A stretch of 64,000 nt of DNA from Nitrospirota bacterium (GCA_037386965.1 JARRLN010000001.1:5323-69322); one strand, 5' to 3'; positions 4,309 through 38,059 are shown, counted from the stretch's first letter. Program-made: numbers and translations. The notes: generated from the sequence alone by a model not told the origin.

Positions 4309-5546
4309 AGGTTTCCCTCCTTACCCTCGGATGCAAGGTGAACCAGGCCGAGGCTGCCCAGTGGGAGGGCGCCCTGAGAAGCAGGGGCCATGCCATCGTG
4401 GGCCTCGGGGACGCCCCGGATGTCTGCGTCGTCAATACCTGCACGGTGACCGGCAAGAGCGACTACCAGTCGCGGCAGCTCATTCGCCGGGCCGGGCGAA
4501 CGGGGGCCCGGGTGTTGGTCACGGGCTGCTACGCGGAGCTCAATGCCGAGCGTGCGCGCGGGTTGGGCGGGGTGGAGCACGTCGTTCGGAACGCAGAAAA
4601 AGATTCCATAATCAGCTACATAGACGAGCAAGCTCATGAAACGCATCATCTTTTGGGGGCAGCGCGCACGAGGGCTTTCCTCAAGGTGCAGGACGGCTGC
4701 GACAGGCGGTGCAGCTATTGCCTGGTCTGGAGGGCCCGGGGCAGGCCCCGCAGCGTCGAGCCCGAGGCGGTGGCGCGGATGGTTCGGCGGGCCGTGGCCG
4801 AGGGGGCGCAGGAGGTCGTCCTTACGGGCATCCATCTGGGTCTTTACGGCGTGGACCTCACGCCCGCGAAGCCCCTGAGCGCCCTGGTGCGAAAGGTCCT
4901 GAGCGATACGGCCGTCAAGCGAGTCCGTTTGAGCTCCCTGGAGGTGGGCGAGGTCGACCAGTCCCTGCTTGAGCTCTTCGAGGACGAGCGCCTTCTCCGC
5001 CATCTTCACATTCCTCTTCAAAGCGGGCACGACGGCGTTCTCAGAAGGATGAATCGGCATTACAGTGCGGAGGCGTTTCGTCGGAGGGTGCAGGGCATCT
5101 CGGAGCGCTACCCGGGGATGGCCTTGGGCACCGACGTCATCGCGGGCTTCCCCGGGGAAACGGACCAGGCCTTCCTCAACACATACAATCTTCTTGAGAG
5201 CCTGCCGTTTACCTATGTGCACGTATTCCCGTACTCGCCCAGGCCCGGCACGCCCGCGGTCGGAATGCCGGGTGCAGTAAGCGGGCCCTTGAAGAAGAAG
5301 CGTGCGGCGCGCCTCAGAAGCCTTGCCCTTGAAAAGAAGAAGGCTTTCATGAAGAGGCAGGTGGGCCGCATACTCGAGGTCCTCGTGGAGGAGGAACTGC
5401 CCGACGGCCTTGTGCAGGGCACGAGCAGGAATTATCTGAAAGTCCGCCTGCCCGGAGAGGGTCGTCTCAAGGGAAGCCTTGTCCCCGTTAGGATTGGCGC
5501 CCTCGAGGACGAAGCCCTGTGGGGAGAGCCCGTTGCTGCGCCGTAA
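4305..5546 (+). CDS. mtaB: Radical SAM methylthiotransferase, MtaB-like (ms2t6A tRNA modification)
   Basis: The protein starts MKVSLLTLGCKVNQAEA and carries a CDRRCSYCLV radical-SAM motif. It is a paralogue of the upstream miaB. Its start overlaps the miaB stop as ATGA. Confidence 0.8.
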   Translation: MKVSLLTLGCKVNQAEAAQWEGALRSRGHAIVGLGDAPDVCVVNTCTVTGKSDYQSRQLIRRAGRTGARVLVTGCYAELNAERARGLGGVEHVVRNAEKDSIISYIDEQAHETHHLLGAARTRAFLKVQDGCDRRCSYCLVWRARGRPRSVEPEAVARMVRRAVAEGAQEVVLTGIHLGLYGVDLTPAKPLSALVRKVLSDTAVKRVRLSSLEVGEVDQSLLELFEDERLLRHLHIPLQSGHDGVLRRMNRHYSAEAFRRRVQGISERYPGMALGTDVIAGFPGETDQAFLNTYNLLESLPFTYVHVFPYSPRPGTPAVGMPGAVSGPLKKKRAARLRSLALEKKKAFMKRQVGRILEVLVEEELPDGLVQGTSRNYLKVRLPGEGRLKGSLVPVRIGALEDEALWGEPVAAP

Positions 5547-5774
5547 CCCTGCGGCACGAAAGCGCTTTTTCTCTGAACAAAACCTGTACACGAACAGAAA
5601 AGCCCTTGTCAGAGAAGGTACGGGGGGCGGGCAGCGCTTCTCTCATGAACAGGTTGTCAACAGCTCGTGTCGATTATAACGTCCGATAAGGTATATTATG
5701 TAAAATACCGAAGTGACCAAGAGACACACAGCAACGCCAGTCTAATCCAAACATTTACCTTATTATAAGAAGCC

Positions 5775-6953
5775 TTATCTCAGTTTAGTTAATCTTCTGC
5801 TTGATATCCATCTGCGGGCCTGTGCCCTTGTGCGGACCTCTCCGGTGAACTGGGCCTTCCGGAGCTCGTAGAGGAGCCTGCCCAGGGCCGGTCCGGGCTT
5901 TAGCGTGCCCAGCTCCATGACCTCCACCGAAGAGAGAAGCCCCTTGGCGCTTATCTTCCAGAATTTCCTGAGCTGGGCCAGATGCTCCACCTGGCAGCTC
6001 AGGACAAGCAGGTCCAGGGCAGCCTCCCCTCCCTCGGCGAACAGGTCATAAAGCACATCCTTCCGGCTGAAATCCGTTTTTTGAAACCTCTGGAAGTTGT
6101 CCTGAACCAGCCGCAGACGCCTCTGGACGGGCCGGCTCAGGCTGAGCCGGTGCTCCCCGGCGCCGATGAAGAGGCCCTCAAGACGGAGGAGCCCCGGGAA
6201 GTCGAGCCCCTGGGGGAATACCTTCAAGTAATACCTTTCAGGTATTTTCTCAACCTTCCCCGCAACGCTCGAAAGACGTTGAATGTTCCGGCGTAACTGC
6301 CCATCTGGCAAGGATACTATCCCTTGGAGGACCCGGTCGCGGTAGGCCGTGCGAAGGGCCTCCTGCGCCCTTTCGCCGTTGAGGAGCCTGAAAAACTCTA
6401 AAGTAATTCTTTCAGCCGCCGGCCTGCCGGCCAGGGACGCAAGCTCGCGCAGGACCGCCCTCGTGCCCCTCTCGATTCGCCAGGGGGGCTCGGCGAGGAA
6501 GCGGTAGGCCCTGAGGATGCGCAGGGGGTCGCTCACAAAGTTCTGCCTCGCCACGCCCCGGAGTATCCCTCTTTGGATGTCGCGCAGCCCCCCGGTGGGG
6601 TCCAGAAGCCCGGTCCCGGGAGACCAGCCCAGCGCGTTTGCGGTAAAGTCCCTCCTCCGGAGGTCCTCTTCGATGGACCCCTTGAGGGGTGAGAAGTCCA
6701 GGACCCTCCCGCCTTTGAGGACCACCCGAAGGAGGCCCTCCTTTCCCAGGGCGACCAGCGTGCCCTCCAGGGACGCCGATACCCCGTGGGCCAGAGGGCC
6801 GGGATTGCCCCTCACGGCAAAGTCCATGTCCGGAGACCGCACCCCGCGGGCCACGAGGTCTCTCAGGTATCCCCCCACAAGGTAAACCTCCCCTGCCCGG
6901 GAGAAGACACGTCTCGCAATGGCGTCCTGGCGAACCCTGGCGTCAAGCTCCAT
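5775..6953 (-). CDS. CCA-adding enzyme / poly(A) polymerase family nucleotidyltransferase
   Basis: It has the PolyA_pol head motif (GGYLRDLVARG...DMDFAV) and an RRDFTANAL motif. A TATAAT at 6973-6978 (minus) and a GGGAGGA Shine-Dalgarno precede the ATG. Confidence 0.8.
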   Translation of the reverse strand: MELDARVRQDAIARRVFSRAGEVYLVGGYLRDLVARGVRSPDMDFAVRGNPGPLAHGVSASLEGTLVALGKEGLLRVVLKGGRVLDFSPLKGSIEEDLRRRDFTANALGWSPGTGLLDPTGGLRDIQRGILRGVARQNFVSDPLRILRAYRFLAEPPWRIERGTRAVLRELASLAGRPAAERITLEFFRLLNGERAQEALRTAYRDRVLQGIVSLPDGQLRRNIQRLSSVAGKVEKIPERYYLKVFPQGLDFPGLLRLEGLFIGAGEHRLSLSRPVQRRLRLVQDNFQRFQKTDFSRKDVLYDLFAEGGEAALDLLVLSCQVEHLAQLRKFWKISAKGLLSSVEVMELGTLKPGPALGRLLYELRKAQFTGEVRTRAQARRWISSRRLTKLR

Positions 6954-7870: not shown

Positions 7871-8587
7871 TTAAGACCTCTTGGGCACGGTGAGCACGGC
7901 CAGGGTCCCCTGCCCCGAAGCCCCGGAAAGCTTTACCTCGCCTCCCAGGACCTCCATGATGCGGCTCACCCTGAAAAGGCCAAGGCCCAGGGAGCCGGGC
8001 TTCCTCGCAAAGAAGGGCTCACACGCCTGGGTGATGTCCTCCGCCTCCATGCCCTGCCCGTCGTCCTGCACGGTGAGGACCACGGACTCCTCCTCGGCGA
8101 AACCCCGAACGTCCACCCTCTTGCCCTTGGCCTCCAGGGCGTTTCTCACCACCTCGGAGAGGGCCTCCCTGAGCCCGTCCGCCCGGGTCTCCACCACCAC
8201 CCCGCGGGCGCACTGGGTTGTCAGGGCAACGCCTTGGTCCCTGGCCTCGGGCGAAACGGTGTCCACCACCTCGGCCAGAATCGAATCCAGCGCGACCGTG
8301 CCGCGGCCGCCGCAGTCGGGACGGCAGGCGTCGGCAAAGGCGTGAAGCGCAGCGGCGGCTTTCCCGACGCCGGACTCGATGCTCTTTACCATTTCCCGGG
8401 TGTCGGCGTCCTTATGCATTTCCTTCAGGATGAAGGCATAATTCAGGGAGGAGGCAAGGGAATTGCTCACCTTGTGGGAGAGCCTGGAGGCAAGGCGGGC
8501 CAGGAAGTCGGAACTTTCCGAACTTTCCCTCTCCGGAGGGCGGCTCTCATTGCCCTCTTTTCTCTTATCAGGTCCGGGAGAGGCCAT
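7871..8587 (-). CDS. Soluble histidine kinase with DHp and HATPase_c domains only (no sensor domain, no TM segment)
   Basis: It has an H-box (RLSHKVSNSLASSL), an N-box (VVRNALEA) and a G-box (GSLGLGLFRVSRIMEVLGGEV). It is only 238 aa and overlaps the upstream activator gene by 20 bp. Confidence 0.8.
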   Translation of the reverse strand: MASPGPDKRKEGNESRPPERESSESSDFLARLASRLSHKVSNSLASSLNYAFILKEMHKDADTREMVKSIESGVGKAAAALHAFADACRPDCGGRGTVALDSILAEVVDTVSPEARDQGVALTTQCARGVVVETRADGLREALSEVVRNALEAKGKRVDVRGFAEEESVVLTVQDDGQGMEAEDITQACEPFFARKPGSLGLGLFRVSRIMEVLGGEVKLSGASGQGTLAVLTVPKRS

Positions 8588-9914
8588 ATTTTTTCAGCTT
8601 GCTGTAAAGGCTTGACCGCGGGATGCCCAGCATCCTGGCCGCCTGGTACTTGTTGCCTCCGCTTTCCCTGAGGGCCTTCTCCAGGAGGTCCTTTTCCGCC
8701 TCATCGAGACGGGAAGGGCCTTCGCCCCCGTCCTCATCGCCCAGCGGAGGCAAGTCGTACGCCTGTATCTGCTTTCCGGAGGCCATGATGAGGGCGTGCT
8801 CGATGGCGTTTTCCAGCTCCCGGACATTGCCCGGCCACGTGTGGCCCATAAGGACCTTGAGGGCGTCCTTCGTCACGCCGGAGGCGCTGCCGCCGGCCTT
8901 CTCCCGGTGTTTCTGAACGAAGTGCATGGCCAGGGCCAGGATGTCGCTCTTTCTCTCCCTCAGGGGCGGCACCCGGATGGTGACGATATTCAGGCGGTAA
9001 AAAAGGTCCTCCCGGAACCGCCCTCCCCGCACGGCGTCCCTCAGGGGCTGGTTGGCCGCCGCGATGAGGCGTATGTCCACGGGAACCTCGCGCCTGCCCC
9101 CCAGGCGCTGGATGGCGCTTTCCTGGAGGGACCTGAGGAGCTTGGCCTGTGAGAGCAGCGGCAGGTTGCCTATCTCGTCCAGAAACAGCGTTCCCCGGTG
9201 CGCTTGTTCGAACTTCCCCGGCCGGCTGCTCATGGCCCCCGTGAAAGCGCCCTTCTCGTATCCGAAGAGCTCCGATTCCACCAGCCCCTCGGGAATGGCC
9301 CCGCAGTCCACGGCCACAAAGGGGCCCCCGGACCGCTTGCTCCGCCGGTGGATGAGGCGGGCAACCACTTCCTTGCCCGTGCCGGACTCTCCTTCGATGA
9401 GCACCGCGCTCTCGCTGGGGGCCACGGTGCCGACGAGGCGCAGGAGCTTCTTCACCGAGGGATGCGAGCCCACGAAATGCCTCTCCGTAAGCTGGTCCAT
9501 CTGCTCGATGAGGTCTCGCCGCTCCGACAGGGCCGTATAGAGCTGCTCGGCGCGGTTGGCCATCTCCAGAAGGTGTTCGGGGTTGACCGGCTTGGTGATG
9601 AAGTCGAAGACTCCCGCCTTCATGGCGCCGACGGCGGCGTCGATTGTTCCCTTTCCGGTCACCATGATCATCTGGACCTCGGGCAGAATGTCCCGGAAAC
9701 GCGTGAGAAGCTCCGTTCCCGGCAGGTCGGGAAGCACGAGGTCGCAGACCACAACGGGCACGGGCCGGTCGGCGAAGAGGCGGACGGCTTCTTCGCCGCA
9801 TGCGGCGGTCATGGCCTCGTAGCCCCGGGAGGCGAAGACCGCACGCAGCGACTCCAGAATGTCCGGCTCGTCATCGACGATGAAAATTCTCCGTGCCTCG
9901 TCCGCAACACTCAT
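8568..9914 (-). CDS. Sigma-54-dependent response regulator (NtrC family: receiver + AAA+ + Fis-type HTH)
   Basis: It has a receiver domain (IFIVDDEPDILESL), Walker A (GESGTGKEV) and the GAFTGA sigma-54 contact loop (EKGAFTGA). The C-terminus carries an HTH (GNKYQAARMLGIPRSSLYSKLKKYG). Confidence 0.9.
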   Translation of the reverse strand: MSVADEARRIFIVDDEPDILESLRAVFASRGYEAMTAACGEEAVRLFADRPVPVVVCDLVLPDLPGTELLTRFRDILPEVQMIMVTGKGTIDAAVGAMKAGVFDFITKPVNPEHLLEMANRAEQLYTALSERRDLIEQMDQLTERHFVGSHPSVKKLLRLVGTVAPSESAVLIEGESGTGKEVVARLIHRRSKRSGGPFVAVDCGAIPEGLVESELFGYEKGAFTGAMSSRPGKFEQAHRGTLFLDEIGNLPLLSQAKLLRSLQESAIQRLGGRREVPVDIRLIAAANQPLRDAVRGGRFREDLFYRLNIVTIRVPPLRERKSDILALAMHFVQKHREKAGGSASGVTKDALKVLMGHTWPGNVRELENAIEHALIMASGKQIQAYDLPPLGDEDGGEGPSRLDEAEKDLLEKALRESGGNKYQAARMLGIPRSSLYSKLKKYGLSRT

Positions 9915-15993: not shown

Positions 15994-17364
15994 ATGCGAA
16001 ATATGCAGACAGTCCTCATTGTCGAAGATAAGGACTCCATGGCCCGCATGCTCAAGGAAACCCTGGAGGCCGAGGGCTACAGGGCCCTGACAGCACAAAA
16101 CGAGGCCGAGGGTCTTCGAAAAATCAAGCAGGAGTCCTCCGACCTTATTCTTACGGACCTGAAACTCCCCGACGGCGACGGGCTTCGCATCCTTCGGGCT
16201 TCCCGGGAGGAAAACCCCCTGAGGCCCGTTATCGTCATGACCGCGTTCGGCTCCGTGGAGACGGCCGTGGAGGCCATGAAGGAAGGCGCCTACGACTTCA
16301 TAACCAAGCCCTTCAACGTGGAGCACCTCCTGGTGCTCATACGAAGGGCCACGGAGAACCAAAGGCTCCTGACCGAAAACATCCTTCTCAGGGAGGAGCT
16401 GGCCTCTCACCTGGGCCTTCCCACCATCATAGGGCGGAGCGAGGGCATCCAGGACCTGGCCCGTAAAGTCCAGAAGGTCGCCCCCGCAAGGACGACAGTT
16501 CTACTTCTGGGAGAAAGCGGCACCGGCAAGGAGCTCTTCGCCCGGGCGGTCCACCACCTGAGCGGCCGTAAGGACTACCCCTTTGTCCCGGTCAACTGTG
16601 CCGCCATCCCCAACGACCTTCTGGAGAGCGAGCTTTTCGGCTACGAGAAGGGAGCCTTCACGGGGGCGGAGTCGCGCAAGCTCGGGAAGTTCGAGCTTGC
16701 CCACGAGGGAACCATATTCCTTGACGAGATAGGGGAGCTTCACCCCTCCTTGCAGGCCAAGCTCCTGAGGGTCCTGCAGGAGGGCGAGGTGGAGCGCGTC
16801 GGCGGCACGAAGGCCGTCAGGGTGGATGTCCGCGTCGTGGCGGCCAGCAACAGGGACCTCGAAAAGGCCGTCCAGGAGAAGGCGTTCCGCGAAGACCTCT
16901 TCTACCGCCTCAACGTCTTCCCGCTGAGGATTCCGCCGTTGAGGGAAAGGCCCGAGGACATCCCCCTTCTGACGGAATACTTCGTCAAGAAGTACGCCAG
17001 GGAGCTCAAGATGCCCGAGAGGACCATTTCCGGGGAGGCCGTGGGAATGCTCCAGGGCTATCGCTGGAAGGGAAACGTCCGGGAGCTCGAAAACACCGTA
17101 GAGCGGGCGATGATTCTCGCCGAGGGCGGCCGCATCGAGCCCGAGCACATCTCCCTTGCCCCCGACGGTGCGCCGGGACTTTTTCCAGGGGCTCCCGGGG
17201 CTTCCCTGGATGAGGTGGCCCGGTTTGCCCTCCGGCAGGCGGAGACCGGGCACATTCGTCGAGCCCTCCAGGAGTCGGGCGGCAATAAGAGCAAGGCGGC
17301 CCAGAGTCTGGGGGTCAGTTACAAGACCCTCTTGACGAAAATAAAGGACTACGGTATCCGGTAG
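15994..17364 (+). CDS. Sigma-54-dependent response regulator (NtrC/AtoC family)
   Basis: It has a receiver domain ([14 protein letters not shown]...[14 protein letters not shown]), Walker A (GESGTGKEL) and the EKGAFTGA loop. The C-terminal HTH reads [25 protein letters not shown]. Confidence 0.9.
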
Positions 17365-28204: not shown

Positions 28205-28564
28205 ATGCCACGGGCACGAGGGGGGTTCAAGACCCGCAGACGCAGAAAGAAAGTCTTAAGCAGGGCCAAGGGTTTTTACTCGGCGAAAAGCCGCAATTTC
28301 AGGAGTGCTACGGAAGCCGTGGACAAGGCCCTGCGCCATGCCTACGCCGACAGGAGGGCGAAGAAGCGCGAGTTCAGGTCCCTGTGGATAGCCCGCATCA
28401 ACGCCGCCGCACGCCAGGAGGGGCTGACCTACAGCCAGTTGATGAAGGGGCTCCGGGACTCCGAGATTCTCCTGAACAGGAAAGTCCTGGCCGACATGGC
28501 CTACCGCGACCCCGAGGCCTTCCGGGCCCTCGTGGGCACCGCCAGGGAGAAGCTCGCGTCCTGA
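28205..28564 (+). CDS. rplT: 50S ribosomal protein L20
   Basis: [35 protein letters not shown]...[14 protein letters not shown]. Confidence 0.9.
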
Positions 28565-29574
28565 TGAACCTGACCGCCCTCAGGGAGGAGTTCGGACAGG
28601 ACATACGGCAAGCCCACTCGACGCAGGACCTGGAGAGGCTCCGGGTCAAGTATCTCGGGAAGAAGGGCCTGGTGACCGAGCAGTTCAAGCTGCTGGCCGA
28701 GATGCCGCCCGGGGAGAAGAAGGCCTTCGGCAAGGGGGTCAACGACCTGAAGACCCTCGTCGCGGAGGAAATCTCCTCCCGCAAAGTGCAGCTCAAGGAC
28801 AAGGAGCTCGGTGAGAAGCTCCTGGCCGAGAGCGTGGATATCACCCTGCCGGGCAAGTATCGGCCTTACGGCCGGGAGCATCCCGTCAACCAGACCATGA
28901 ACGAGATCATCGGGATATTCTCGAGCATGGGCTTCGGCGTGGAGGAAGGCCCGGAGGTGGAGACGGACTACTATAACTTCGAAGCCTTGAACATCCCCAA
29001 GGACCACCCCGCCCGGGACATGCAGGACACCTTCTACATCAGCGACGAGGTGGTTCTCCGCACGCACACCTCTCCTGTGCAGGTACGGGTCATGGAGCGG
29101 AGCACCCCTCCCCTGAGGTTCATCGCCCCCGGAAAGGTTTACCGCTGCGACGCCGACATCTCCCATACGCCGATGTTCCATCAGGTGGAGGGCCTGATGG
29201 TGGGCGCCGACATTTCCTTCAGCCACCTGAAGGGCGTCCTGGAGGCCTTCGTTCATGCCTTCTTCGGGCCGGAGGTGCCGGTGCGGTTCCGCCCGAGCTT
29301 CTTCCCCTTCACCGAGCCCTCCGCGGAGGTGGACATCGGGTGCACCTTCTGCCGGGGCCGCGGCTGTCGGGTCTGCAAGGCCTCGGGGTGGATAGAAATC
29401 CTGGGGGCCGGCATGGTCAACCCCAGGGTCTTCGAAATGGTGGGCTACGACCCGGAGCAGTACACCGGCTTTGCCTTCGGCATGGGGGTGGAGCGCATCG
29501 CCATGCTCAGCTTCTCGGTGGACGACATCCGCCTGTTTTACGAAAACGACGTCCGCTTCCTCGGGCAGTTCTAA
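28564..29574 (+). CDS. pheS: Phenylalanine--tRNA ligase alpha subunit
   Basis: ATG at 28564 overlaps the rplT stop (TGATG) and gives [10 protein letters not shown]...LERLRVKYLGKKG. Class II motifs are present (FRPSFFPFTEPSAEVD, GMGVERIAML). The listed start at 28384 is an extension running through rplT. Confidence 0.9.
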   Translation: MNLTALREEFGQDIRQAHSTQDLERLRVKYLGKKGLVTEQFKLLAEMPPGEKKAFGKGVNDLKTLVAEEISSRKVQLKDKELGEKLLAESVDITLPGKYRPYGREHPVNQTMNEIIGIFSSMGFGVEEGPEVETDYYNFEALNIPKDHPARDMQDTFYISDEVVLRTHTSPVQVRVMERSTPPLRFIAPGKVYRCDADISHTPMFHQVEGLMVGADISFSHLKGVLEAFVHAFFGPEVPVRFRPSFFPFTEPSAEVDIGCTFCRGRGCRVCKASGWIEILGAGMVNPRVFEMVGYDPEQYTGFAFGMGVERIAMLSFSVDDIRLFYENDVRFLGQF

Positions 29575-30470
29575 AGGCCCGCGCCCCTCGCGGAGCCCCC
29601 GACGCGCACGAAGCACTCCTTCACCGTAAGGCCGTCCCTCCCGACATATCCCCCGGCCATGTACTTCGTCGTGTGGATGATGGCCGGCCTTCCCCTCGCG
29701 TCAATGGCGATGACCCCGCCCTCGCCGCCCATGCGGGTAAGCCTGGTGAGCGAGCGCGCTGCGGCCTCGCGCAGGGTCAGGAGGAAAAGGCTCATGCATA
29801 TTTCCTTGCCCAGGCAAAGGCGCAGGATGTGCTCGCCGGAGCCCGTGCAGGCCACCGCACCCAGGGCGTTCTCGGCATAAACCCCGGCGCCCACGATGGG
29901 GGTGTCGCCTACCCGGCCGGGGAGCATCGCCGCGACCCCGCCCGTCGATGCCGCGGCCGCAAGGTCGCCCCTCCCGTCCCGGGCCACAGCCCCCACGGTG
30001 GAGAAGTATTTCTCGTACAGCTCCATGAAGTCCCTGTTCCGTCTCGCCTTCTGCAGGCTCTCTCTGGCCCTTTCGACCGGCGGGGGGAGCGGTGCAAGCC
30101 CCTCGGCGCGGGCCATGGCGGCGGCCCCTTCTCCCGCAAGCATTGTGTTGGGCAGGTCCATGGCCCGCCGGGCGGCAAAAACGGGGTTTCTGAAACCCTG
30201 AAGGCCGATGACGGAACCGGCCCTAAGCCCGCGGCCTTCCATGACGGAGGCGTCCAGCCTCCGGAGGCCGTCGGCCTGGAGGTTGGCCCCGGCCCCGGCG
30301 TTAAACTCCCCGGAGTTCTCCATGAGGGCAATGGTCCTGGTGACGGCATCGAGGGCGGCCCCCCCGGCTTTGAGGATGTCCCAGCCCTCCCGAAGAGCCT
30401 CCGACAGCGCCTGTAAGGCTGCCCCGGAGGGCCTCTTCTCCCCCGCTCCACCGTGGACCATGAAGACCAT
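29571..30470 (-). CDS. Isoaspartyl peptidase / L-asparaginase (Ntn hydrolase, asparaginase_2 family)
   Basis: It starts VHGGAGE and has the autoprocessing nucleophile context (STVGAVARDGRGDLAAAASTGG). Its 3' end overlaps pheS by 4 bp (convergent). Confidence 0.85.
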   Translation of the reverse strand: MVFMVHGGAGEKRPSGAALQALSEALREGWDILKAGGAALDAVTRTIALMENSGEFNAGAGANLQADGLRRLDASVMEGRGLRAGSVIGLQGFRNPVFAARRAMDLPNTMLAGEGAAAMARAEGLAPLPPPVERARESLQKARRNRDFMELYEKYFSTVGAVARDGRGDLAAAASTGGVAAMLPGRVGDTPIVGAGVYAENALGAVACTGSGEHILRLCLGKEICMSLFLLTLREAAARSLTRLTRMGGEGGVIAIDARGRPAIIHTTKYMAGGYVGRDGLTVKECFVRVGGSARGAGL

Positions 30471-30807
30471 GCACGCTCCTCCTCATCTTCATCCTACTAC
30501 AGGGATTCACGCGGGGGAACGGCACTCCGCATATGTCTTCCCGTTTGTCTCACATTAGAAAGATTAAGCCCTATCTGTTACTGATTGTAATCCTTCCCAT
30601 AGACCGTTAAGAATTCCATAATCTTCTGTCGGAATTATTTGCAAAAATACACCCCAAGATAAGCAAGGATTCAGAAATCCCCATAAAAACAATGCTTTTA
30701 TATAAGGCATATATTTTGCTTTTACAAAATTTCAAGGGGATGTGGTCATCTAATTAAGACAGAGAGGAGGGCGTCAAGGAATCCTTGCGGGACAGGCACC
30801 TGTAAAA

Positions 30808-30822
30808 GGGCACGAATATTGC
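30808..30822 (+). promoter_or_regulatory. Sigma-54 promoter (-24/-12) of the PEP-CTERM beta-propeller gene
   Basis: The site reads GGGCAC-GAATA-TTGC. The GG (30809-30810) and GC (30821-30822) are separated by exactly 10 nt. It lies about 40 bp upstream of the ATG at 30862, and AAGGAGG sits between the two. Confidence 0.6.
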
Positions 30823-30861
30823 CTGCTCGATTCTTAATAAGACCAGCGAAAGGAGGTCTCC

Positions 30862-31851
30862 ATGAGAAGAGTCGCTATCATAGCGACGTTGTTCATGTTG
30901 TTAGCATGGACGGGCATTGCCTCGGCCCTGCCGTACACACAGGGAAACGTTTTCGTATCCCTCCGGGACGGGACGGTCCAAGAGTACACCCCCACCGGAA
31001 CCCTGGTGCAGACCCTCAGCACGCCTTCATCTGGGGAGTTGACGGGTTCGGCCTTCGATTCGAGCGGCAACTTTTATGTGACAGCAGGGTTCTCGCTACA
31101 ACCCGCAGGTGGTATTTACAAATTCGATTCCAGCGGCAACCTGGTGTCGCCCTCCCCATTTTTCACGAACCCTTCTGTCAATGGCTCGACCAATGAATCT
31201 ATCCTGTTCAACATAGCCGGGATGGCACTGTCGGGGACGGCCGACGGAGACAGAACTGTCAACCTGTTTGATCCCAGTACGGGTGGAAATCCTGTCACCC
31301 AGTACAGTGTCGCGACGCAGGACCGGGGGAGCGACTGGATCGATCTTGCAGCCGACCAGACGACCCTCTACTACACCTCAGAGGGCTCCAGGATTCTCAG
31401 GTACGACCTCGACACCAGCACGCAACTGACAGATTTCACCAACGAGGGGTTTAACCTGTTTGCCCTCAGGCTTCTTTCAAGCGGGGGGATTCTGGCCGCC
31501 GACACTAATAAGGTCCTTCGGTTCGACAGCAGCGGGAACGTTGCGCAGACGTACCTGCCCGGTTCCGGCTTGCTCTTCGCCCTGAATCTCGACCCGGATG
31601 GCACCTCCTTCTGGACCGCGGAATATTATACAGGCGACATATACAATATCGACATCGCCACCGGCACCATCCTTAACCAATTTGATATCGACCAGGGAAT
31701 CAGCGGACTGTCGGTCTACGGCGAGATAACCCAAGGCGGCGGCGGCGGAGGAGGAGGGGGTGGAGAGCCCATTCCCGAGCCTTCCACACTATTTCTTCTC
31801 GGCAGCGGGTTCCTGGGGCTTGCGGCGTTCAGAAGGCGATTCAGAAGATAG
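30862..31851 (+). CDS. Secreted beta-propeller-like repeat protein with Gly10 linker and C-terminal PEP-CTERM sorting signal
   Basis: It has a signal peptide (MRRVAIIATLFMLLAWTGIASA). Repeated blade motifs occur (AFDSSGNFYV, KFDSSGNLV, RFDSSGNVAQ, LDPDGTSFW). The C-terminus reads GGGGGGGGGG-EPIPEPSTLFLLGSGFLGLAAFRRRFRR, i.e. PEP motif, TM helix and Arg cluster. Confidence 0.8.
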   Translation: MRRVAIIATLFMLLAWTGIASALPYTQGNVFVSLRDGTVQEYTPTGTLVQTLSTPSSGELTGSAFDSSGNFYVTAGFSLQPAGGIYKFDSSGNLVSPSPFFTNPSVNGSTNESILFNIAGMALSGTADGDRTVNLFDPSTGGNPVTQYSVATQDRGSDWIDLAADQTTLYYTSEGSRILRYDLDTSTQLTDFTNEGFNLFALRLLSSGGILAADTNKVLRFDSSGNVAQTYLPGSGLLFALNLDPDGTSFWTAEYYTGDIYNIDIATGTILNQFDIDQGISGLSVYGEITQGGGGGGGGGGEPIPEPSTLFLLGSGFLGLAAFRRRFRR

Positions 31852-31901: not shown

Positions 31902-31953
31902 AGGGCGCTCCTCCTGTTAATAGTCTAACGACATTGGATGGGAGGAGCGCCCT
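31902..31953 (+). terminator. Long-loop hairpin downstream of the beta-propeller gene (possible terminator)
   Basis: There is a perfect 13-bp inverted repeat, AGGGCGCTCCTCC (31902-31914) / GGAGGAGCGCCCT (31941-31953). The loop is 26 nt and the hairpin is followed by TCTTTAT. Confidence 0.45.
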
Positions 31954-32174
31954 TCTTTATCCCCGCTTCAATTTCACCTAATCACCTGACGGCTGTAATT
32001 CGCATGAGCTTGTTTTTCACTCAGAAAGATGCCAGTGCCATAAGGTGGGTGTCTTTAGAGACATGAGAATTAAGTTTGGTCGCCGCTACTGTGCCTTCTT
32101 TTTGGAAGGCCTCCACATCTCTTCCTCCTGGCGACACGCCCCCCTCCGCCATCTGCCGGTTGCCCAGTGGTTGT

Positions 32175-32201
32175 TAAAAAAGGCCCCTCTGAAAGGGGCC
32201 T
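32175..32201 (-). terminator. Rho-independent terminator on the minus strand, just outside the left tRNA-derived repeat
   Basis: The stem is AGGCCCCT/AGGGGCCT with a 5-nt loop (32181-32201). On the minus strand the hairpin is followed by TTTTTTAA. Confidence 0.6.
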
Positions 32202-32230
32202 TTGGAAAAAGTAACTTTTTTATGAAGTTG

Positions 32231-32251
32231 TGGCGCGCCCAGGAGGATTCG
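32231..32251 (-). repeat. Partial duplicate (21 nt) of the tRNA-Arg(ACG) 3' end; putative distal att site
   Basis: TGGCGCGCCCAGGAGGATTCG is identical to 36084-36104 and in the same orientation. Confidence 0.85.
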
Positions 32252-32360
32252 GTATCAAGGTGACACTGAGCTGGTGGAAGGCGGCCGGAGTCTGACCGGC
32301 AAACTCCCATCTATCCGCTCTTTACCGAAGGGCAATCCTTGTTCTGTAAGGATCGGCTGT

Positions 32361-34178
32361 TCAGGGAAGACGTTTGAGGAGTCTTTCCGCTTCCTTCGCC
32401 TCTTTGAAATCCCGAGAGATCGAGAGAGCCTTCTCTACGCTGCGCCGTGCGGCCTCCGCGTTGCCCGAGGCCCGGTACGCCTCGGCTAGGTGATAAAGGA
32501 TGGTTGGGCTATTCGGCGACAGAGAGGTCGACTTCTCGAGTGTATCCAGGGCTTCCTTTGTCCTGCCAAGCTTGAACAGAACCCATCCAAGGGTATCAAG
32601 AATCATGGCGTTTTCGCCCGCCGAGGAGGCGGCCCTCCGCGCCATCATCAGGGCTTGGTCGTTGTCCCCTCTTTCAAGCTCTAGCATCGCCAGGTTGTTG
32701 AGGGCGTACACATGCTGGGGATCATTTGCAATGATATCCCGATACATCTTTAGTGCACGGAGTTTGTCCCCCGCGTCCTGGTAGAGGGCGGCAAGGTAAA
32801 ACATGTCATCGGGATTATCGGGGCTGGCCTTCCGGAGCTGTTCTGCGGCCTCGATTGCCTTTTTCAGGTCGCCTTTCCGTACGTACGTTACGCTCAGGGC
32901 CTTGAGAATCAGCGGCTCACTCGGGGCAAGCGAGAGAGCTTTGCCAAGTTCATCGAGTGCAATATCGTATTTCTTGACATAACCGTAAAAGAGGCCAAGT
33001 TCGTAAAAAGACAAGGGTGAGTCCGGAAACCTCCGGGACATTTCCTTGAATGTCTCTTCGGCGAGGTCCATCTGGCCAATCATCTGATACGTTGAGCCGA
33101 GCAAGTCGTAAATTTCAATACCCGCGTTCCCGGAGCCCACTATTTCAGTGTAAATCTTTATCGCTTCTGCGGGTTTTTCCTCGCGGAGGTACACATCTGC
33201 AATCCTCTTCCGGGCAAAAAGTGGATCAGGGCTTAGGTCTGCGGCCCGCTTGTAGCACCGCAGCGCTTCTTCGTATCGTCCCATCGCAAAGAGCGTCTCT
33301 CCAAGCTGGTAATGTCCGACAGACCACTCAGGCTTTATCTCTGTTACTTTCTGTAGTTCCGCGAGGGATTCCTGGTATTTCCCCTTTTCCCTATATGCCA
33401 TCCCTAGCGGAAGGCGGGCCCTCTCCGTGTCGGGTTCGAGTTTGAGGGCGGTCTTAAAATGGTCAATGGCTTCGTTCACCCTGTCCGTGTTCAGATAAGC
33501 GGAGCCAAGCACGATATGCGCCGTGGCACCACCTTTATCTCTGGTAATGAGTCCCTCAAGCAGCGCAATGGTCTTTTCGTACATCCTCGAAAGGTTATAG
33601 AGCCGCCCCAGGTTTACCTTGACTCCTACATACTCGGGTGGTGTCCCCCTTATGCCTTTTCCATAATGTTCGACGGCCTGCTGATACTTACCTTCGTCCT
33701 CGTATATCAGCCCGAGCCTTTGGTGGGCTCTCCGGTTTTGAGGATTTATCTTGATGGCCTGGAGGAATTTCTCTTTAGCTTTCTTCTGTTGGCCCTGCGC
33801 CATATAGATGTCGCCTATCTTGGTGATGGCTGAATCCGCGGAAGGGTCCAGTTCAACGGCCCTTTTAAGGGCCTTGAGACCTTCGTCAACCTGTCCCTTC
33901 ATGACCAACGCGGCCCCGAGGATTTCCTGGGCGGGGGCAGAGCCGGGGTCGTCTTTCAGCACTTCCCGGACCTTCTTGATTGCAGCATCGTATCGACCAT
34001 GGTTCAGAAGGGCAAGGGCCTCAGCCAGAGACTTCTGCCCAGGAAGAACCTGTATCTGTTCGGGGGTTATGTCGATTACCGGGAAGGCCTGAGAAACCGC
34101 GATGTCAAATGTCAGGGATGCAATCGCCCCCGCGACAAACATGCACAACCAGAATAATGCTCTCCTCGTCATTTTCAA
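32361..34178 (-). CDS. Secreted or membrane-anchored tetratricopeptide (TPR) repeat protein
   Basis: The N-terminus is hydrophobic (MKMTRRALFWLCMFVAGAIASL). More than 12 tandem 34-aa TPR-like units follow (recurrent A..Y...G....A...F..AL..dP). It is 605 aa. Confidence 0.85.
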   Translation of the reverse strand: MKMTRRALFWLCMFVAGAIASLTFDIAVSQAFPVIDITPEQIQVLPGQKSLAEALALLNHGRYDAAIKKVREVLKDDPGSAPAQEILGAALVMKGQVDEGLKALKRAVELDPSADSAITKIGDIYMAQGQQKKAKEKFLQAIKINPQNRRAHQRLGLIYEDEGKYQQAVEHYGKGIRGTPPEYVGVKVNLGRLYNLSRMYEKTIALLEGLITRDKGGATAHIVLGSAYLNTDRVNEAIDHFKTALKLEPDTERARLPLGMAYREKGKYQESLAELQKVTEIKPEWSVGHYQLGETLFAMGRYEEALRCYKRAADLSPDPLFARKRIADVYLREEKPAEAIKIYTEIVGSGNAGIEIYDLLGSTYQMIGQMDLAEETFKEMSRRFPDSPLSFYELGLFYGYVKKYDIALDELGKALSLAPSEPLILKALSVTYVRKGDLKKAIEAAEQLRKASPDNPDDMFYLAALYQDAGDKLRALKMYRDIIANDPQHVYALNNLAMLELERGDNDQALMMARRAASSAGENAMILDTLGWVLFKLGRTKEALDTLEKSTSLSPNSPTILYHLAEAYRASGNAEAARRSVEKALSISRDFKEAKEAERLLKRLP

Positions 34179-34284
34179 CCCCCTGCCTTTTCAATAGACC
34201 GTCTTTTAAATTATCTCGAAGTCCAGGAAAAAATCAACGAAATGAATGCATCACCGGCAAACAGGGGGTCCGGCTTGAGCGGGG

Positions 34285-34320
34285 AAAAAGCAGGCACGGG
34301 TAATTGACCCGTGCCTGCTC
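34285..34320 (-). terminator. Rho-independent terminator of the vWA/PEP-CTERM gene
   Basis: The stem is GCAGGCACGGG/CCCGTGCCTGC with a 7-nt loop. On the minus strand it is followed by TTTTT, 16 bp after the stop at 34336. Confidence 0.65.
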
Positions 34321-34335
34321 GCCTTGATGTTCAAT

Positions 34336-35451
34336 TTACTTCCCGAACTTCATACTTCTCACACCGACAAGACCTAAAAGACCGACTCCCACCAGCAGAA
34401 AAGTTGCAGGCTCCGGCACGGCGGCTGCTGCGCCACCCACCGTAAATCTGTCGCTTTCTATGGCAACAATGCCCCCGTCAACGAGCGCATCAATGCTGAA
34501 AGCATGCGTTCCGGCTTCAAGACCGGTAAAGGTTACATCAAAGGCAAACGTCATGTCGGTGTCACGCGAGAAGTCACCCAGATAAGACGTAGGGCTTATG
34601 GAGACGCCTACGCCCGGCAGGTTGCCATCCGCCATCAGGGACACCTCGCTATAGGACGCAAAGACGGACGCCAGGGCGTCATCGATCACGGTGACGATCT
34701 CACCCGAAGTCACACCGCTGAACAGGTCGCCTCCGGTGGCGTCGGTGATGGCAGTCGCCTGACCGGTAGAGTTCAAACCTCCCAGGTCGATTGCCTCCAC
34801 AACAACATTCTCCGCAGTGAGAGAACCGATGGCGTCAGAAAGCCCTATATCGGATGGATATGAGGCCTCCAGGTCCCCGTCATGCCCCGGAGCATCGCCG
34901 AACCAGACGACTATCTTTGTAGCGTCGTCCCGCCAACTGGTCGTGGTGGCCACTTGGTCAAGCGCATAAAGGTTGGCCTCAGGAGTGTCGCCGCCACTGC
35001 CAGCGACTGCGTCCAGCGAACCGATTGCGCTTTGCGCTGCGGTGGCGTCCGTCGTGATATCCTGGACCAGCTCGTAGGCTACATCGCCCGGGAGGCCGTA
35101 AGGAGACACCGGAAAATCCTCGTAGTCGCCCACGCCGAACGCCACGTCCCCCAGCCCCGAGGCATTTGAGAGAATCGTGGAGGCGTTGGTCTGCGCGGAG
35201 GATATCAGTGGAGCCATGCTTCCCGTGGTGTCAAACAGGAAGAAGACGTCCACCTTTGCCGTTGTGACGTCCGAGGTTACGGTCACCGTCTTTTCAACGG
35301 TGAGGCTCTCACCCACATCGATAGACGCTGAAACCGAAGCCGGGCTGATGGTGTCCGCTAATGCGACGTACGGCAATGCCAGAAGAAGCGCAACACAGAG
35401 GGTGAGCAAAAGCTGCACCTTTCTTCCCATTGCTACTTTTGGTCCTTTCAT
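34336..35451 (-). CDS. Secreted von Willebrand factor A (vWA) domain protein with C-terminal PEP-CTERM sorting signal
   Basis: It has a signal peptide (VQLLLTLCVALLLALPYVALA). The MIDAS-like motif is DVFFLFDTTGSM, with ...GGDTPE and VVWFGDAPGHD further on. The C-terminus reads AAAAVPEPATFLLVGVGLLGLVGVRSMKFGK. GGAGGTG lies 7 nt upstream of the ATG. Confidence 0.85.
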   Translation of the reverse strand: MKGPKVAMGRKVQLLLTLCVALLLALPYVALADTISPASVSASIDVGESLTVEKTVTVTSDVTTAKVDVFFLFDTTGSMAPLISSAQTNASTILSNASGLGDVAFGVGDYEDFPVSPYGLPGDVAYELVQDITTDATAAQSAIGSLDAVAGSGGDTPEANLYALDQVATTTSWRDDATKIVVWFGDAPGHDGDLEASYPSDIGLSDAIGSLTAENVVVEAIDLGGLNSTGQATAITDATGGDLFSGVTSGEIVTVIDDALASVFASYSEVSLMADGNLPGVGVSISPTSYLGDFSRDTDMTFAFDVTFTGLEAGTHAFSIDALVDGGIVAIESDRFTVGGAAAAVPEPATFLLVGVGLLGLVGVRSMKFGK

Positions 35452-35507
35452 TTCTTTTCACCTCCCTTCCAGGTTTTTCGGTTTATCGGGAATCGGACCG
35501 ATTACAA

Positions 35508-35522
35508 GCAAAAGACGTGCCC
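35508..35522 (-). promoter_or_regulatory. Sigma-54 promoter (-24/-12) of the vWA/PEP-CTERM gene
   Basis: The minus strand reads GGGCAC-GTCTT-TTGC, the same form as the 30808 site. The -12 element lies about 57 bp upstream of the ATG at 35451. Confidence 0.6.
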
Positions 35523-36083
35523 ATTTAGAACATCCGGATTTTAAATGATAGTTTTCTCAACGTCTGTGGGCTAAACTATCTTTTGTAAAATCCTCCGACA
35601 CAAAATTCGAGAAAGTTTACATATCATAGGCCGTATGAATGATGGTCATAATTCGTTAATGGTAGGTGCAGCTTGAGATGCGAATCTGTTGGGAAACCAT
35701 GACATTCACGATAGGAAATCCCGCAACCAGGCGGAACCGGACATTGAGCACCTCAGAGTACCTTTTTCGGAGGGCGCAAGGTAGTCAACGTTATCCCAGA
35801 CTTGATGCAGGTCCATAACCGGAGAAAGCGGCGCGACGGTGCCGGTCCGTGCGCCACCAGCCGGGAGTTTTCAGCCATGCGCCGTATGTCGGCTCTCGCA
35901 TTTTCGAAGGTACGACGTGGTCAGTGGGTCAGACCTCGGGGCCGCCTCAGAGAGGCTGACGGATGTGCATCGGGAAGCACAAGAAGTCCTCGAACGGAAA
36001 GGAGATGGGCAATTTCGAACACACGAAACAAGCACAAAGGGCTCCCGCAAAGATGACCGGAAGCCCGCAAGTGCTTGAAAATA

Positions 36084-36160
36084 TGGCGCGCCCAGGAGGA
36101 TTCGAACCCCCGACACTCGGATTCGTAGTCCGATGCTCTATCCGGCTGAGCTATGGGCGC
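36084..36160 (-). tRNA. tRNA-Arg (anticodon ACG), CCA encoded
   Basis: Manual cloverleaf: acceptor GCGCCCA/TGGGCGC, D stem GCTC/GAGC, anticodon stem TCGGA/TCCGA with loop CTACGAA, T loop TTCGAAT, discriminator G, then CCA. Confidence 0.9.
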
Positions 36161-36197
36161 AGACGGAAGGAGGGGCTCCGAAGGCCCCCTCCTCTGT

Positions 36198-36701
36198 TTA
36201 GCTTGTGGCCTTGATGCCCTCCTTCAGGGTCAGGGCGTACGTATCATGCTCGAAGGGGTGGATGGCCGGGAACTTCGAGTACAGCCATCCGGTGAATATC
36301 TGCTTGTCACCCTCGAACACATCAACATGCACCGCCGGGTTGTTCAGCTCGTTTGAGGCCGATGTAATGGTCGACCCGCTCATCTTGAAGTCGGGAAGGA
36401 ATTGCCCGACTTCGATCTTCAGGTTCGAGCCCGGGATGGCGTATTCTCCCTCCAGCGGAATGGTGACTTCGTCGGACTTCTTGGTCGTCTTGTTTTCGAT
36501 AACCAACGTGACCGCCTTCCACTTCCCTGCAACCGATTCGGGGACGACTATCTGCGTCTGCACGGGAGGCATAACGCCATGCGGAGAAGCGGCCTCCCCG
36601 CCCGGCTGGCCCGGCTTCGTAATCGGTTCCTCCTTCTGCTTGCACCCCACGAAAGCAAAGACCACGACAAGAGCCGCCAACAGCACCAGAAGTTTTCTCA
36701 T
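36198..36701 (-). CDS. Putative lipoprotein of unknown function
   Basis: ATG 36701 gives MRKLLVLLAALVVVFAFVGCKQ, a signal peptide with a lipobox Cys. The listed ORF start (36833) would run through tRNA-Ser and is rejected. Confidence 0.7.
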   Translation of the reverse strand: MRKLLVLLAALVVVFAFVGCKQKEEPITKPGQPGGEAASPHGVMPPVQTQIVVPESVAGKWKAVTLVIENKTTKKSDEVTIPLEGEYAIPGSNLKIEVGQFLPDFKMSGSTITSASNELNNPAVHVDVFEGDKQIFTGWLYSKFPAIHPFEHDTYALTLKEGIKATS

Positions 36702-36745
36702 TCGCCTTCCTCCTGTATAGGTTGCACGCCATGAAGTCCATACGC

Positions 36746-36839
36746 TGGCGGAGAGGCAGGGATTCGAACCCTGGGTGAGGCTTTTGACCCCACAACCGCT
36801 TAGCAGGCGGCTGCCTTCAGCCAGCTCGGCCACCTCTCC
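36746..36839 (-). tRNA. tRNA-Ser (anticodon GCT), long variable arm, CCA encoded
   Basis: Manual cloverleaf: acceptor GGAGAGG/CCTCTCC, anticodon stem GCCGC/GCGGT with loop CTGCTAA, long variable arm, T loop TTCGAAT, then G-CCA. Confidence 0.9.
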
Positions 36840-36894
36840 TCATTGACCTTTTATGTTATCAGGTATGCGCGCGCTTTGTAAAGGGACGCACGGT

Positions 36895-36923
36895 TTGCGG
36901 AGCCCAAAAAAATTTAGTAAAAT
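36895..36923 (+). promoter_or_regulatory. Candidate sigma-70 promoter of nifS (TTGCGG-17 nt-TAAAAT)
   Basis: TTGCGG lies at 36895-36900 and TAAAAT at 36918-36923. The ATG follows 11 nt downstream with no Shine-Dalgarno. Confidence 0.35.
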
Positions 36924-36934
36924 AAAGTCCTTCC

Positions 36935-38059
36935 ATGATCTACCTGGACCACAACGCGACCACTCCGGTAGAGCCGGAAGTGGCGGAGGCCATGGCGGAA
37001 GCCCAGAGGGAGGGCTTCGGAAATCCTTCGAGCTGCCACCTCCCCGGGGTCCGGGCGCGCCAGTTCGTGGAAACGGCCCGCTCCCGGGTCGCCGGGCTTC
37101 TCGGAGCACGGCAGGAGGAGATTTATTTTACCTCCGGGGGCACCGAGTCCAACAACCTTGCCATCCTGGGCCTTGCGCGCCGTCGTCCGAAAGGGCACAT
37201 CGTCACCTCGGCCGTGGAACACCCCTCCGTAACCCAGGCCGTCCGCCACCTTCTCTCTCAGGGTTTTCAGGCCACCCTCGTCGGGGTGGACGGCGACGGA
37301 CGCGTGAAGGTGGATGAGGTGGAGCGGGCCATACGGGACGACACGGTGCTCATCACCGTCATGCACTCCAACAACGAGACCGGCGTGCTCCAGCCCATCG
37401 AGGATATAGCGCGTCTGGCCCGGAGCCGCAAGGTCCCCTTCCACACAGACGCCGCCCAGTCCGTGGGAAAGGTGCCCGTGAGCGCGGAGGCCTGTGACAT
37501 GCTTACCGTGGCCGGCCACAAACTCTACGGGCCCAAGGGTGTCGGGGCGCTGTACGTGCGAAGGGGCATCGCCCTGGAGCCCATCCTCTTCGGGGCCGGA
37601 CACGAGAAGGGGCTCCGCCCGGGGACGGAGAACGTTTCCGGGGTGGTGGGTCTCGGTGTGGCCTGCGAGCTTGCGGGCCGGGAGCGAGAGGCCCGGGGAC
37701 GCCATGTGGAGGCATTGGCGGAGAGGTTCCTTTCGGGCCTCAGGCGGAACGTCTCCGCCCTCCGCCTGAACGGCCACCCTGCCCTCAGGCTTCCGGGGAC
37801 CCTGAATCTCTGCTGCCCCGGTGTGGATTCCACCTCCCTGACCGCCGCCCTGGGGGACCGGATAGCCATGTCTTCGGGCTCCGCGTGCCACGCGGGGGAG
37901 AGGAAGCCCTCGGCCGTGCTCATGGCCATGGGCGTTTCGGAGGACGAGGCGCTCTCCTCGGTAAGGTTCAGCCTCGGGAAGGACAACACGGAAGAAGAGA
38001 TGGACCGGGCCGTCAGGATACTTTCAGAGACCCTTGCTCCACCGGCCCCAGCACGGTAA
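36935..38059 (+). CDS. nifS: Cysteine desulfurase (NifS/IscS class V aminotransferase)
   Basis: It starts MIYLDHNATTP. Motifs are TSGGTESNN, HSNNETGVLQPI, the PLP lysine in GHKLYGPKGVGALYVR, and the catalytic Cys loop SSGSACHAG. Confidence 0.9.
   Translation: MIYLDHNATTPVEPEVAEAMAEAQREGFGNPSSCHLPGVRARQFVETARSRVAGLLGARQEEIYFTSGGTESNNLAILGLARRRPKGHIVTSAVEHPSVTQAVRHLLSQGFQATLVGVDGDGRVKVDEVERAIRDDTVLITVMHSNNETGVLQPIEDIARLARSRKVPFHTDAAQSVGKVPVSAEACDMLTVAGHKLYGPKGVGALYVRRGIALEPILFGAGHEKGLRPGTENVSGVVGLGVACELAGREREARGRHVEALAERFLSGLRRNVSALRLNGHPALRLPGTLNLCCPGVDSTSLTAALGDRIAMSSGSACHAGERKPSAVLMAMGVSEDEALSSVRFSLGKDNTEEEMDRAVRILSETLAPPAPAR

Follow-up and report, generated by a model that had tools for sequence, protein, structure and literature searches.

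Two described systems come closest to the locus reported here. Among the tDNA islands of Klebsiella pneumoniae, direct repeats of 20-25 bp are the commonest and often extend from the T-loop as far as the CCA end; the smallest islands are about 3.5 kb, and 27 of 162 are without an integrase (bioRxiv 10.1101/2020.11.02.365908). The ssrA islands of Dehalococcoides carry a 20-bp repeat of the 3′ end of the RNA gene, with the crossover mapped to the T-loop, and are low in G+C, break synteny and accrete in tandem; 15 lack an integration module and have been discussed as either cis-mobilizable or fixed (PMC3146451). Here we describe a 64,000-nt stretch from an uncultured Nitrospirota bacterium (GCA_037386965.1, JARRLN010000001.1:5323-69322; hereafter the window), in which positions 32252-36083 most likely constitute a decayed islet, integrated by a tyrosine integrase into the 3′ end of tRNA-Arg(ACG).

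As in the Klebsiella islands, an intact tRNA gene is paired with a direct repeat of its 3′ end, the repeat is of matching length, G+C is low, and the integrase, here a remnant, lies beside the tRNA. The locus differs from them in its gutted integrase, its uncultured Nitrospirota host and its PEP-CTERM/TPR cargo. With the Dehalococcoides islands it shares a short 3′ repeat of an RNA gene, low G+C and the occurrence of integrase-less members, whereas those islands use serine recombinases at ssrA and the window has a tyrosine-integrase remnant at a tRNA gene, with a single repeat pair. In this context, the locus is a textbook tRNA-associated genomic islet, placed at the decayed or fixed end of the known spectrum. 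Recognising it explains a low-G+C patch beside tRNA-Arg in this genome, which is mainly a matter of annotation tidying, and would show a route by which a Nitrospirota lineage gained two exosortase-linked surface proteins.

The tRNA-Arg repeat and the integrase remnant

The exact 21-mer TGGCGCGCCCAGGAGGATTCG has two copies in the window, at 32231-32251 and 36084-36104, both on the minus strand. The second, attL-side copy is the terminal 21 nt, from C56 of the T-loop to the encoded CCA, of an intact minus-strand tRNA-Arg(ACG) gene (36084-36160; predicted by ARAGORN; Rfam tRNA model 66.2 bits, E = 5e-13). The first is an orphan, the attR-side repeat, which lies 3.8 kb downstream of the tRNA gene in the orientation it has within the tRNA. 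An earlier note on this DNA had placed the two copies at these sites in matching orientation, identified the second as the last 21 nt of tRNA-Arg(ACG) with the extra copy on its 3′ side, and judged chance recurrence very unlikely; exact searching, ARAGORN and Rfam agree with the first two statements, and two matches were found in none of 100 dinucleotide shuffles of the window, in line with the third. No further copy was detected across the whole 64 kb with up to three mismatches, and allowing up to six yielded only unrelated sequences and the 3′ end of tRNA-Arg(CCT). In an Rfam scan of 29-38 kb, two tRNAs alone exceeded the thresholds.

The edges of the repeat are sharp, one at the CCA end and the other in the T-loop. 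Beyond the 21-mer, similarity did not rise above that of shuffled sequence, either towards the tRNA body (56 nt compared) or in the distal direction (60 nt compared), no tRNA-like continuation was found at the inner side of the orphan copy, and the islet termini compared as inverted repeats likewise had no similarity above shuffles. The pair thus has the anatomy of attachment sites attL and attR: an intact tRNA at one end and a same-orientation repeat of its 3′ part at the other.

Directly after the CCA lies a 15-nt motif, TATTTTCAAGCACTT (36069-36083, minus strand), found by local alignment, whose score was reached by 0.25% of shuffles. It is identical at 14 of 15 bases to the sequence in the same place in an intact metagenomic element at tRNA-Arg(ACG) (locus L179, described below), and is presumed to be an att flank derived from the element. 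A broader proposal, that a CCA-flank motif is conserved in all loci, was dropped: the loose pattern mostly caught a different motif, AAATCAAGGGG, downstream of many tRNA-Arg copies.

Further evidence comes from the 632-nt spacer (35452-36083) that separates tRNA-Arg from the nearer of two cargo genes. Integrase queries came from the open reading frames (ORFs) found just downstream of the 21-mer in metagenomes: three of these 97 ORFs, from 92 loci, are PF00589 integrases. Two of the three (L179 and L131) match the spacer in tblastn. Residues 313-362 of the L179 integrase align to 35896-36045 with 40% identity over 50 residues, residues 91-136 to 35763-35900 and, more weakly, residues 67-92 to 35689-35766; the three matches are colinear and all on the plus strand. 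The best spacer score, 38.1 bits, compares with a shuffle maximum of 25.4, and the sum of the top two, 69.3, with 43.9; neither was reached in any of 500 dinucleotide shuffles. Such colinear family matches mark out a tyrosine-integrase pseudogene at 35683-36078 on the plus strand, convergent with tRNA-Arg.

A profile built from 120 members of the integrase family was run on all 1432 six-frame fragments of the window, and its top three matches were the same three pieces: 35683-35772 (profile positions 66-95, E = 0.089), 35760-35903 (positions 91-138, E = 5e-4) and 35896-36042 (positions 314-362, E = 7e-7), all on the plus strand. The last keeps the ‘RY’ of the catalytic-tyrosine motif, and its frame continues to a TGA at 36076-36078, 5 nt from the end of tRNA-Arg. 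These pieces are the sole integrase-like signal in the window, and they stand beside tRNA-Arg. The reading frame changes twice between them, and profile positions 139-313, the catalytic core, are absent (about 175 codons, or about 525 nt), so that what is left is the tail with the tyrosine and a portion of the SAM-like domain at the N terminus; a catalytic domain with R-H-R-Y, as in PF00589, is not present in the remnant. Because the catalytic core is deleted, the pseudogene is non-functional.

A six-frame Pfam scan of 35440-36090 that included PF00589, at E-values up to 10, returned no integrase. The earlier note had proposed just such a search of the spacer, where the negative outcome misleads and is overturned by the family-specific profile; its description of the islet as recombinase-less is accordingly wrong as history. 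Its account of the cargo, a TPR gene (32361-34178) and a vWA/PEP-CTERM gene (34336-35451), stands, but its 630 bp of non-coding DNA in fact hold the integrase remnants and a sigma-54-type promoter. Among the genes annotated over about 94% of the window there is no integrase or transposase, and no remnants of excisionase, primase, relaxase or small backbone genes were detected in the islet. As a lesson in method, a profile made from integrases that lie beside the same att sequence in metagenomes finds the remnant, which the generic Pfam integrase model misses.

Intact elements of the same integrase family, whose members are about 370 aa long with more than 7,800 matches in the protein database, provide the template for this layout. 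At L179, tRNA-Arg(ACG) is followed after 28 nt by a convergent gene for a 366-aa integrase that has a SAM-like domain at its N terminus and matches PF00589 with E = 6.8e-19; next come a gene for an excisionase-like HTH_17 protein, small ORFs, a closing 45-nt repeat of the 3′ part of the tRNA, and then purH, a core gene; the element measures 2.75 kb. At L228, 14 nt separate the end of the family integrase from a convergent tRNA-Leu(CAA); the element there is 6.7 kb long and also encodes a primase and an HTH_17 protein. The 3′ end of this tRNA is present in three copies (45, 45 and 30 nt), which mark two adjacent segments at this locus (L228 164-9461), the second of which is 2.5 kb long, integrase-less and in tandem with the intact element, and encodes an HD-domain sensor and a TPR protein. 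L228 is thus a case of tandem accretion within the integrase family to which the window remnant belongs.

In general, intact family members are convergent with their tRNA and end 14-30 nt from its 3′ end, including beside the same 21-mer. L179 and L228 share with the window a convergent integrase at the tRNA-proximal end and a repeat of the tRNA 3′ end at the far end, and L179 shares in addition the 21-mer itself and the near-identical 15-nt flank after the CCA. They differ in having a full integrase, an HTH_17 gene, at L228 a primase, and longer repeats, which begin at the anticodon loop and measure about 45 nt; neither contains vWA/TPR cargo. The shared arrangement therefore identifies the window layout as the family standard minus a working integrase and backbone. 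As an observation on L179 itself (3030-5879), its integrase reads DRHNIV against the family consensus DRYNIV, and the catalytic tyrosine may be replaced by histidine.

Proposed integration and decay, and competing readings

The proposed course of events begins with a tyrosine integrase, which would have inserted a small integrative element into tRNA-Arg(ACG) at its 3′ end. Recombination of this gene with the attP of the element would have restored the tRNA, now ending in element-supplied sequence followed by an element-type flank, and would have displaced the original tRNA 3′ end and its terminator 3.8 kb downstream, where the former survives as the orphan 21-mer. A terminator scan and reading of the sequence place a hairpin with a T-run at 32175-32201 on the minus strand, 30 nt beyond the orphan 21-mer and outside the islet, and this terminator-like structure is probably the original terminator of tRNA-Arg. 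The integrase gene would initially have stood at the end of the element nearer the tRNA, in the convergent orientation seen in the intact relatives. A deletion of about 525 nt, together with frame shifts, would then have deprived it of its catalytic core; because that core is gone, the islet would no longer be self-mobile. What survives intact is a two-gene cargo operon, apparently transcribed from a sigma-54-type promoter. The chromosomal hairpin at 32175-32201, beyond attR, is the only terminator-like structure downstream of this operon.

Entry of 32252-36083 by site-specific integration, as the earlier note had supposed, is supported by the att-like repeat, the foreign-looking codon usage and the colinear integrase remnants beside the tRNA. 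Of the two fates that note had offered, a decayed island is favoured, because an integrase remnant is present, and mobilisation in trans is the less well supported.

Several observations suggest that the integration is fairly recent and that the integrase was then inactivated by one deletion and two frame shifts, not by long neutral decay. The two copies of the repeat match perfectly; against the family profile, the remnant reaches 0.38 bits per residue, compared with 0.36 for the L167 integrase, which is distant but intact; no stop codon interrupts the homologous stretches; and the islet has no polymorphism among the nine conspecific contigs that cover it. In a wider set of 16 conspecific contigs, 34 variable sites occur in 26935-48059 and none in 31938-37446, a tract spanning the islet, tRNA-Arg and the DUF2155 gene. 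This gap could reflect recent acquisition or a sweep, and is only moderately significant because the single-nucleotide polymorphisms cluster.

Codon usage sets the cargo apart from the core chromosome. The 44 core genes of the window have a G+C content at third codon positions (GC3) of 0.831 ± 0.043 with a minimum of 0.720, and both the TPR gene (0.626, z = -4.8) and the vWA gene (0.652, z = -4.2) fall below all of them. So, too, does a 329-aa PEP-CTERM gene (30862-31851, plus strand; Pfam PEP-CTERM 29.7 bits; 30809-31851 with its own sigma-54-type promoter), with a GC3 of 0.691 (z = -3.3). Because this atypical gene lies outside the repeat, composition does not mark the left boundary of the islet. 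The windowed scan that the earlier note recommended therefore gives a divided answer: the interior is indeed atypical relative to core genes, but the low-GC3 tract is not bracketed by the repeats.

That tract, from about 30.5 to 36.1 kb, passes the left repeat by 1.7 kb, and is one of several points that weigh against a single integrated islet. An unusual composition may just be a trait of secreted PEP-CTERM genes in this genome, or the 329-aa gene may stem from an older, separate insertion. The repeat is 21 nt long, against about 45 nt from the anticodon loop in intact family elements. Conspecific contigs, found by exact-protein look-up of two flanking genes, contain the islet wherever they span the site, and neither an empty site nor an excised circle was seen. 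Homologues of the cargo pair in other loci adjoin neither tRNAs nor integrases. Finally, the generic Pfam integrase model is blind to the remnant pieces, which are only 30-45% identical to family members. The length of the repeat would be explained either by a crossover site in the T-loop or by later truncation of attR, which would also disable the element. The T-loop is reportedly among the sublocations of tRNA integration listed by Williams in 2002. It is mentioned as a crossover or repeat boundary in the studies of the Dehalococcoides and Klebsiella islands as well (PMC3146451; bioRxiv 10.1101/2020.11.02.365908).

The extended low-GC3 tract raises the question of whether the foreign DNA is composite, with about 30.5-36.1 kb built by two successive integrations at tRNA-Arg, the orphan 21-mer being an internal junction and an outer repeat near 30.5 kb having been lost. 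The 329-aa PEP-CTERM gene, lower in GC3 than any core gene, fits this idea, as does the rare motif GGCACG-N4-TTGC that it has in common with the cargo; in relatives, the stretch from tRNA-Arg to pheS lacks all of these genes, and tandem arrays are known both in the same integrase family, at L228, and at Dehalococcoides ssrA (PMC3146451). Near 30.5 kb, however, there is no third copy of the 21-mer with up to six mismatches, and the family profile finds no trace of an integrase. The asparaginase gene in the same variable interval (ORF 29571-30470) is native in composition, with a GC3 of 0.843, and a shared promoter type could equally mean a host regulon. We therefore regard two successive integrations as possible but rather unlikely.

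Less probable still is an islet that remains mobile as a cis-mobilizable element, with intact att sites on which a related integrase encoded elsewhere in the genome acts in trans, and which may even have arrived with its integrase dead. The islet does lack functional recombination and transfer genes, as such elements do, its only candidate being the gutted integrase. Its repeat has stayed perfect and its sequence free of polymorphism in the nine covering contigs despite the broken integrase; the 2.5-kb integrase-less segment at L228 sits between tRNA-Leu repeats in tandem to an intact family element; and integrase-less Dehalococcoides islands with 20-bp ssrA repeats have been described as possible cis-mobilizable elements (PMC3146451). 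Against this, the window encodes no helper integrase, and at least 11 conspecific contigs include no empty-site or alternative-junction form. The attR copy is without the anticodon-loop part usual in repeats of this family, so that the crossover site may be gone, and the remnant is little decayed by substitution, for which recent inactivation in place suffices. An extended version, in which the vWA/PEP-CTERM and TPR pair is a surface-protein cassette that crosses phyla on small tRNA-targeting elements and the islet is still moved in trans by a resident family integrase, likewise earns little credence from us.

It is scarcely credible that the 21-mer recurs by chance, or is all that survives of a second tRNA-Arg gene made by duplication, with native genes between the copies. 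The missing empty site and a possible compositional oddity of PEP-CTERM genes for reasons other than transfer would suit this reading, but shuffles exclude chance, a duplicated tRNA in decay would not retain 21 bases without a mismatch and then lose similarity all at once at the T-loop, and the integrase remnant in canonical position and orientation would be left unexplained.

The cargo operon and its expression signals

Besides the integrase remnant, the single integrated islet favoured here carries two genes on the minus strand. The first (34336-35451) encodes a 371-aa secreted protein with a vWA domain (VWA_4, 30.3 bits) and a C-terminal PEP-CTERM signal at residues 344-365 (PF07589, 28.5 bits against a cut-off of 20.7), both matches being above cut-off. 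The second (32361-34178) encodes a 605-aa TPR-repeat protein with matches to Pfam TPR families. At least 338 homologues of the vWA protein, with about 45-61% identity, occur in Nitrospirota, Desulfobacterales, Myxococcota and other groups. At all six of the loci inspected (L207-L212), the vWA gene is followed directly by a full-length TPR orthologue of about 600 aa with 40-49% identity. The vWA proteins of such pairs are about 350-370 aa long, and the pair is found in several phyla. Judged by this recurrence, the two genes form a conserved two-gene module, of which the window appears to hold an intact operon.

Around the cargo pair in other genomes we found no noncoding similarity, no att-like sequences and no tRNAs. 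In three of four genomic contexts the GC3 of the module is out of keeping with its neighbours, and an uncharacterised vWA/PEP-CTERM and TPR pair with such a mismatch in at least three genomes is a modest lead for further work. The vWA protein had no match among phages and only distant vWA relatives among plasmids.

Neither cargo protein reaches a curated NCBIfam cut-off. The TPR protein was considered as a PrsT (TIGR02917), the TPR lipoprotein of the XrtA/PEP-CTERM system and its best NCBIfam match, and was rejected because it scores 272.4 bits against a cut-off of 312.2 and has 605 aa against an 899-position profile, of which it covers positions 305-666. Likeness to the XrtA/PEP-CTERM system consists in this match and in the PEP-CTERM signal at the end of the vWA protein. 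No exosortase is found among the genes annotated in the window.

A pattern search for expression signals found two sigma-54-type -24/-12 elements, GGCACG-N4-TTGC. One, at 35508-35521 (minus strand), precedes the start of the vWA gene by about 55 nt; the other, at 30809-30822 (plus strand), precedes the 329-aa PEP-CTERM gene by about 40 nt. These are the only two sites in 64 kb, where 0.12 would be expected, and two sites occurred in none of 100 shuffles. Both lie just upstream of PEP-CTERM genes, in the common context TAAA(A/T)GGGCACG....TTGC(C/T)T. Sigma-54-dependent regulation has been proposed for PEP-CTERM genes, and the sigma-54-type promoters here fit that proposal, in a further likeness to the XrtA/PEP-CTERM system. 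The motif is absent upstream of the homologous cargo modules elsewhere, and the cargo thus seems to be wired into a host or host-like sigma-54 regulon. Two sigma-54-dependent response regulators are also encoded in the window, at 8568-9914 and 16003-17364.

Genomic setting and the 21-mer in metagenomes

The window belongs to the core chromosome of an uncultured Nitrospirota bacterium and has 99.9% identity with contig JARRLP010000001.1 of the metagenome-assembled genome GCA_037386945.1, as well as with several JGI and Logan contigs. To the left, the gene order runs thrS-infC-rpmI-rplT-pheS, asparaginase, the 329-aa PEP-CTERM gene (plus strand) and the orphan 21-mer; to the right follow the TPR gene and the vWA/PEP-CTERM gene (both minus strand), the spacer, tRNA-Arg, a DUF2155 lipoprotein gene, tRNA-Ser(GCT), genes for an aminotransferase and an M16 peptidase, pnp and rpsO. 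In the promoter region of the 329-aa PEP-CTERM gene (30696-30764), the window differs at four positions from all 11 other conspecific contigs that cover it. At 28564-30470, pheS is followed by the convergent asparaginase gene and not by pheT, which is likewise absent from this place in the relatives L222 and L224.

Among the matches listed for the aminotransferase gene, the best relative has 59% identity and no synteny. The nearest syntenic lineages have 60-63% identity in the DUF2155 protein, and nothing closer was found. Flanking synteny is conserved in them, with rpsO-pnp-M16-tRNA-Ser-DUF2155-tRNA-Arg to one side and pheS-rplT-rpmI-infC-thrS to the other. The interval between tRNA-Arg and pheS, by contrast, holds four unrelated genes in L222, one 390-aa gene in L224 and 6.5 kb in the window, and it is a variable spot because these syntenic relatives carry unrelated genes there. 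The block of tRNA-Ser(GCT), DUF2155 lipoprotein gene and tRNA-Arg(ACG) (window 36084-36839) is kept in the Nitrospirota relatives L222, L224, L087, L120 and L096. In more distant relatives, the gene after tRNA-Arg is truB, tadA, bipA or another; tRNA-Arg(ACG) is the known substrate of the tadA product.

The earlier note had allowed that the 21-mer might prove to be a repeat dispersed over many non-tRNA loci, and in metagenomes this is not the case. It occurs 123 times over 120 loci, and 97 of these occurrences are predicted tRNA-Arg 3′ ends (87 ACG, 6 TCT and 4 TCG); contig ends truncate a further seven, and the other 19 are orphans. Most of the orphans consist of the 3′ half of the tRNA, from the anticodon loop onward, with unrelated AT-rich DNA ahead of it; by their sequence they appear to be att fragments of the classic type. 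The orphan repeats are about 45 nt long, whereas the window repeat has 21 nt and ends in the T-loop. A search of IMG/VR with the 21-mer gave no match.

With about 15% of the occurrences (19 sites, loci L089-L201) being orphan tRNA-Arg 3′ halves that start at the anticodon loop, the survey suggests that tRNA-Arg is a heavily used integration target among environmental bacteria. The frequency of such halves and the integrase family of about 370 aa are modest leads beyond this locus. At L143 (35-6734), a 6.6-kb segment lies between 64-nt repeats composed of 47 nt of tRNA-Arg and 17 nt beyond it; it contains transposase gene fragments (rve, IS91-type and DDE_3) and a methyltransferase gene, and no tyrosine integrase was found among the ORFs tested. 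At L138 (38-243), two 21-mers lie 129 nt apart beside a disrupted tRNA-Arg, and the T-loop boundary of one of them is the same as in the window.

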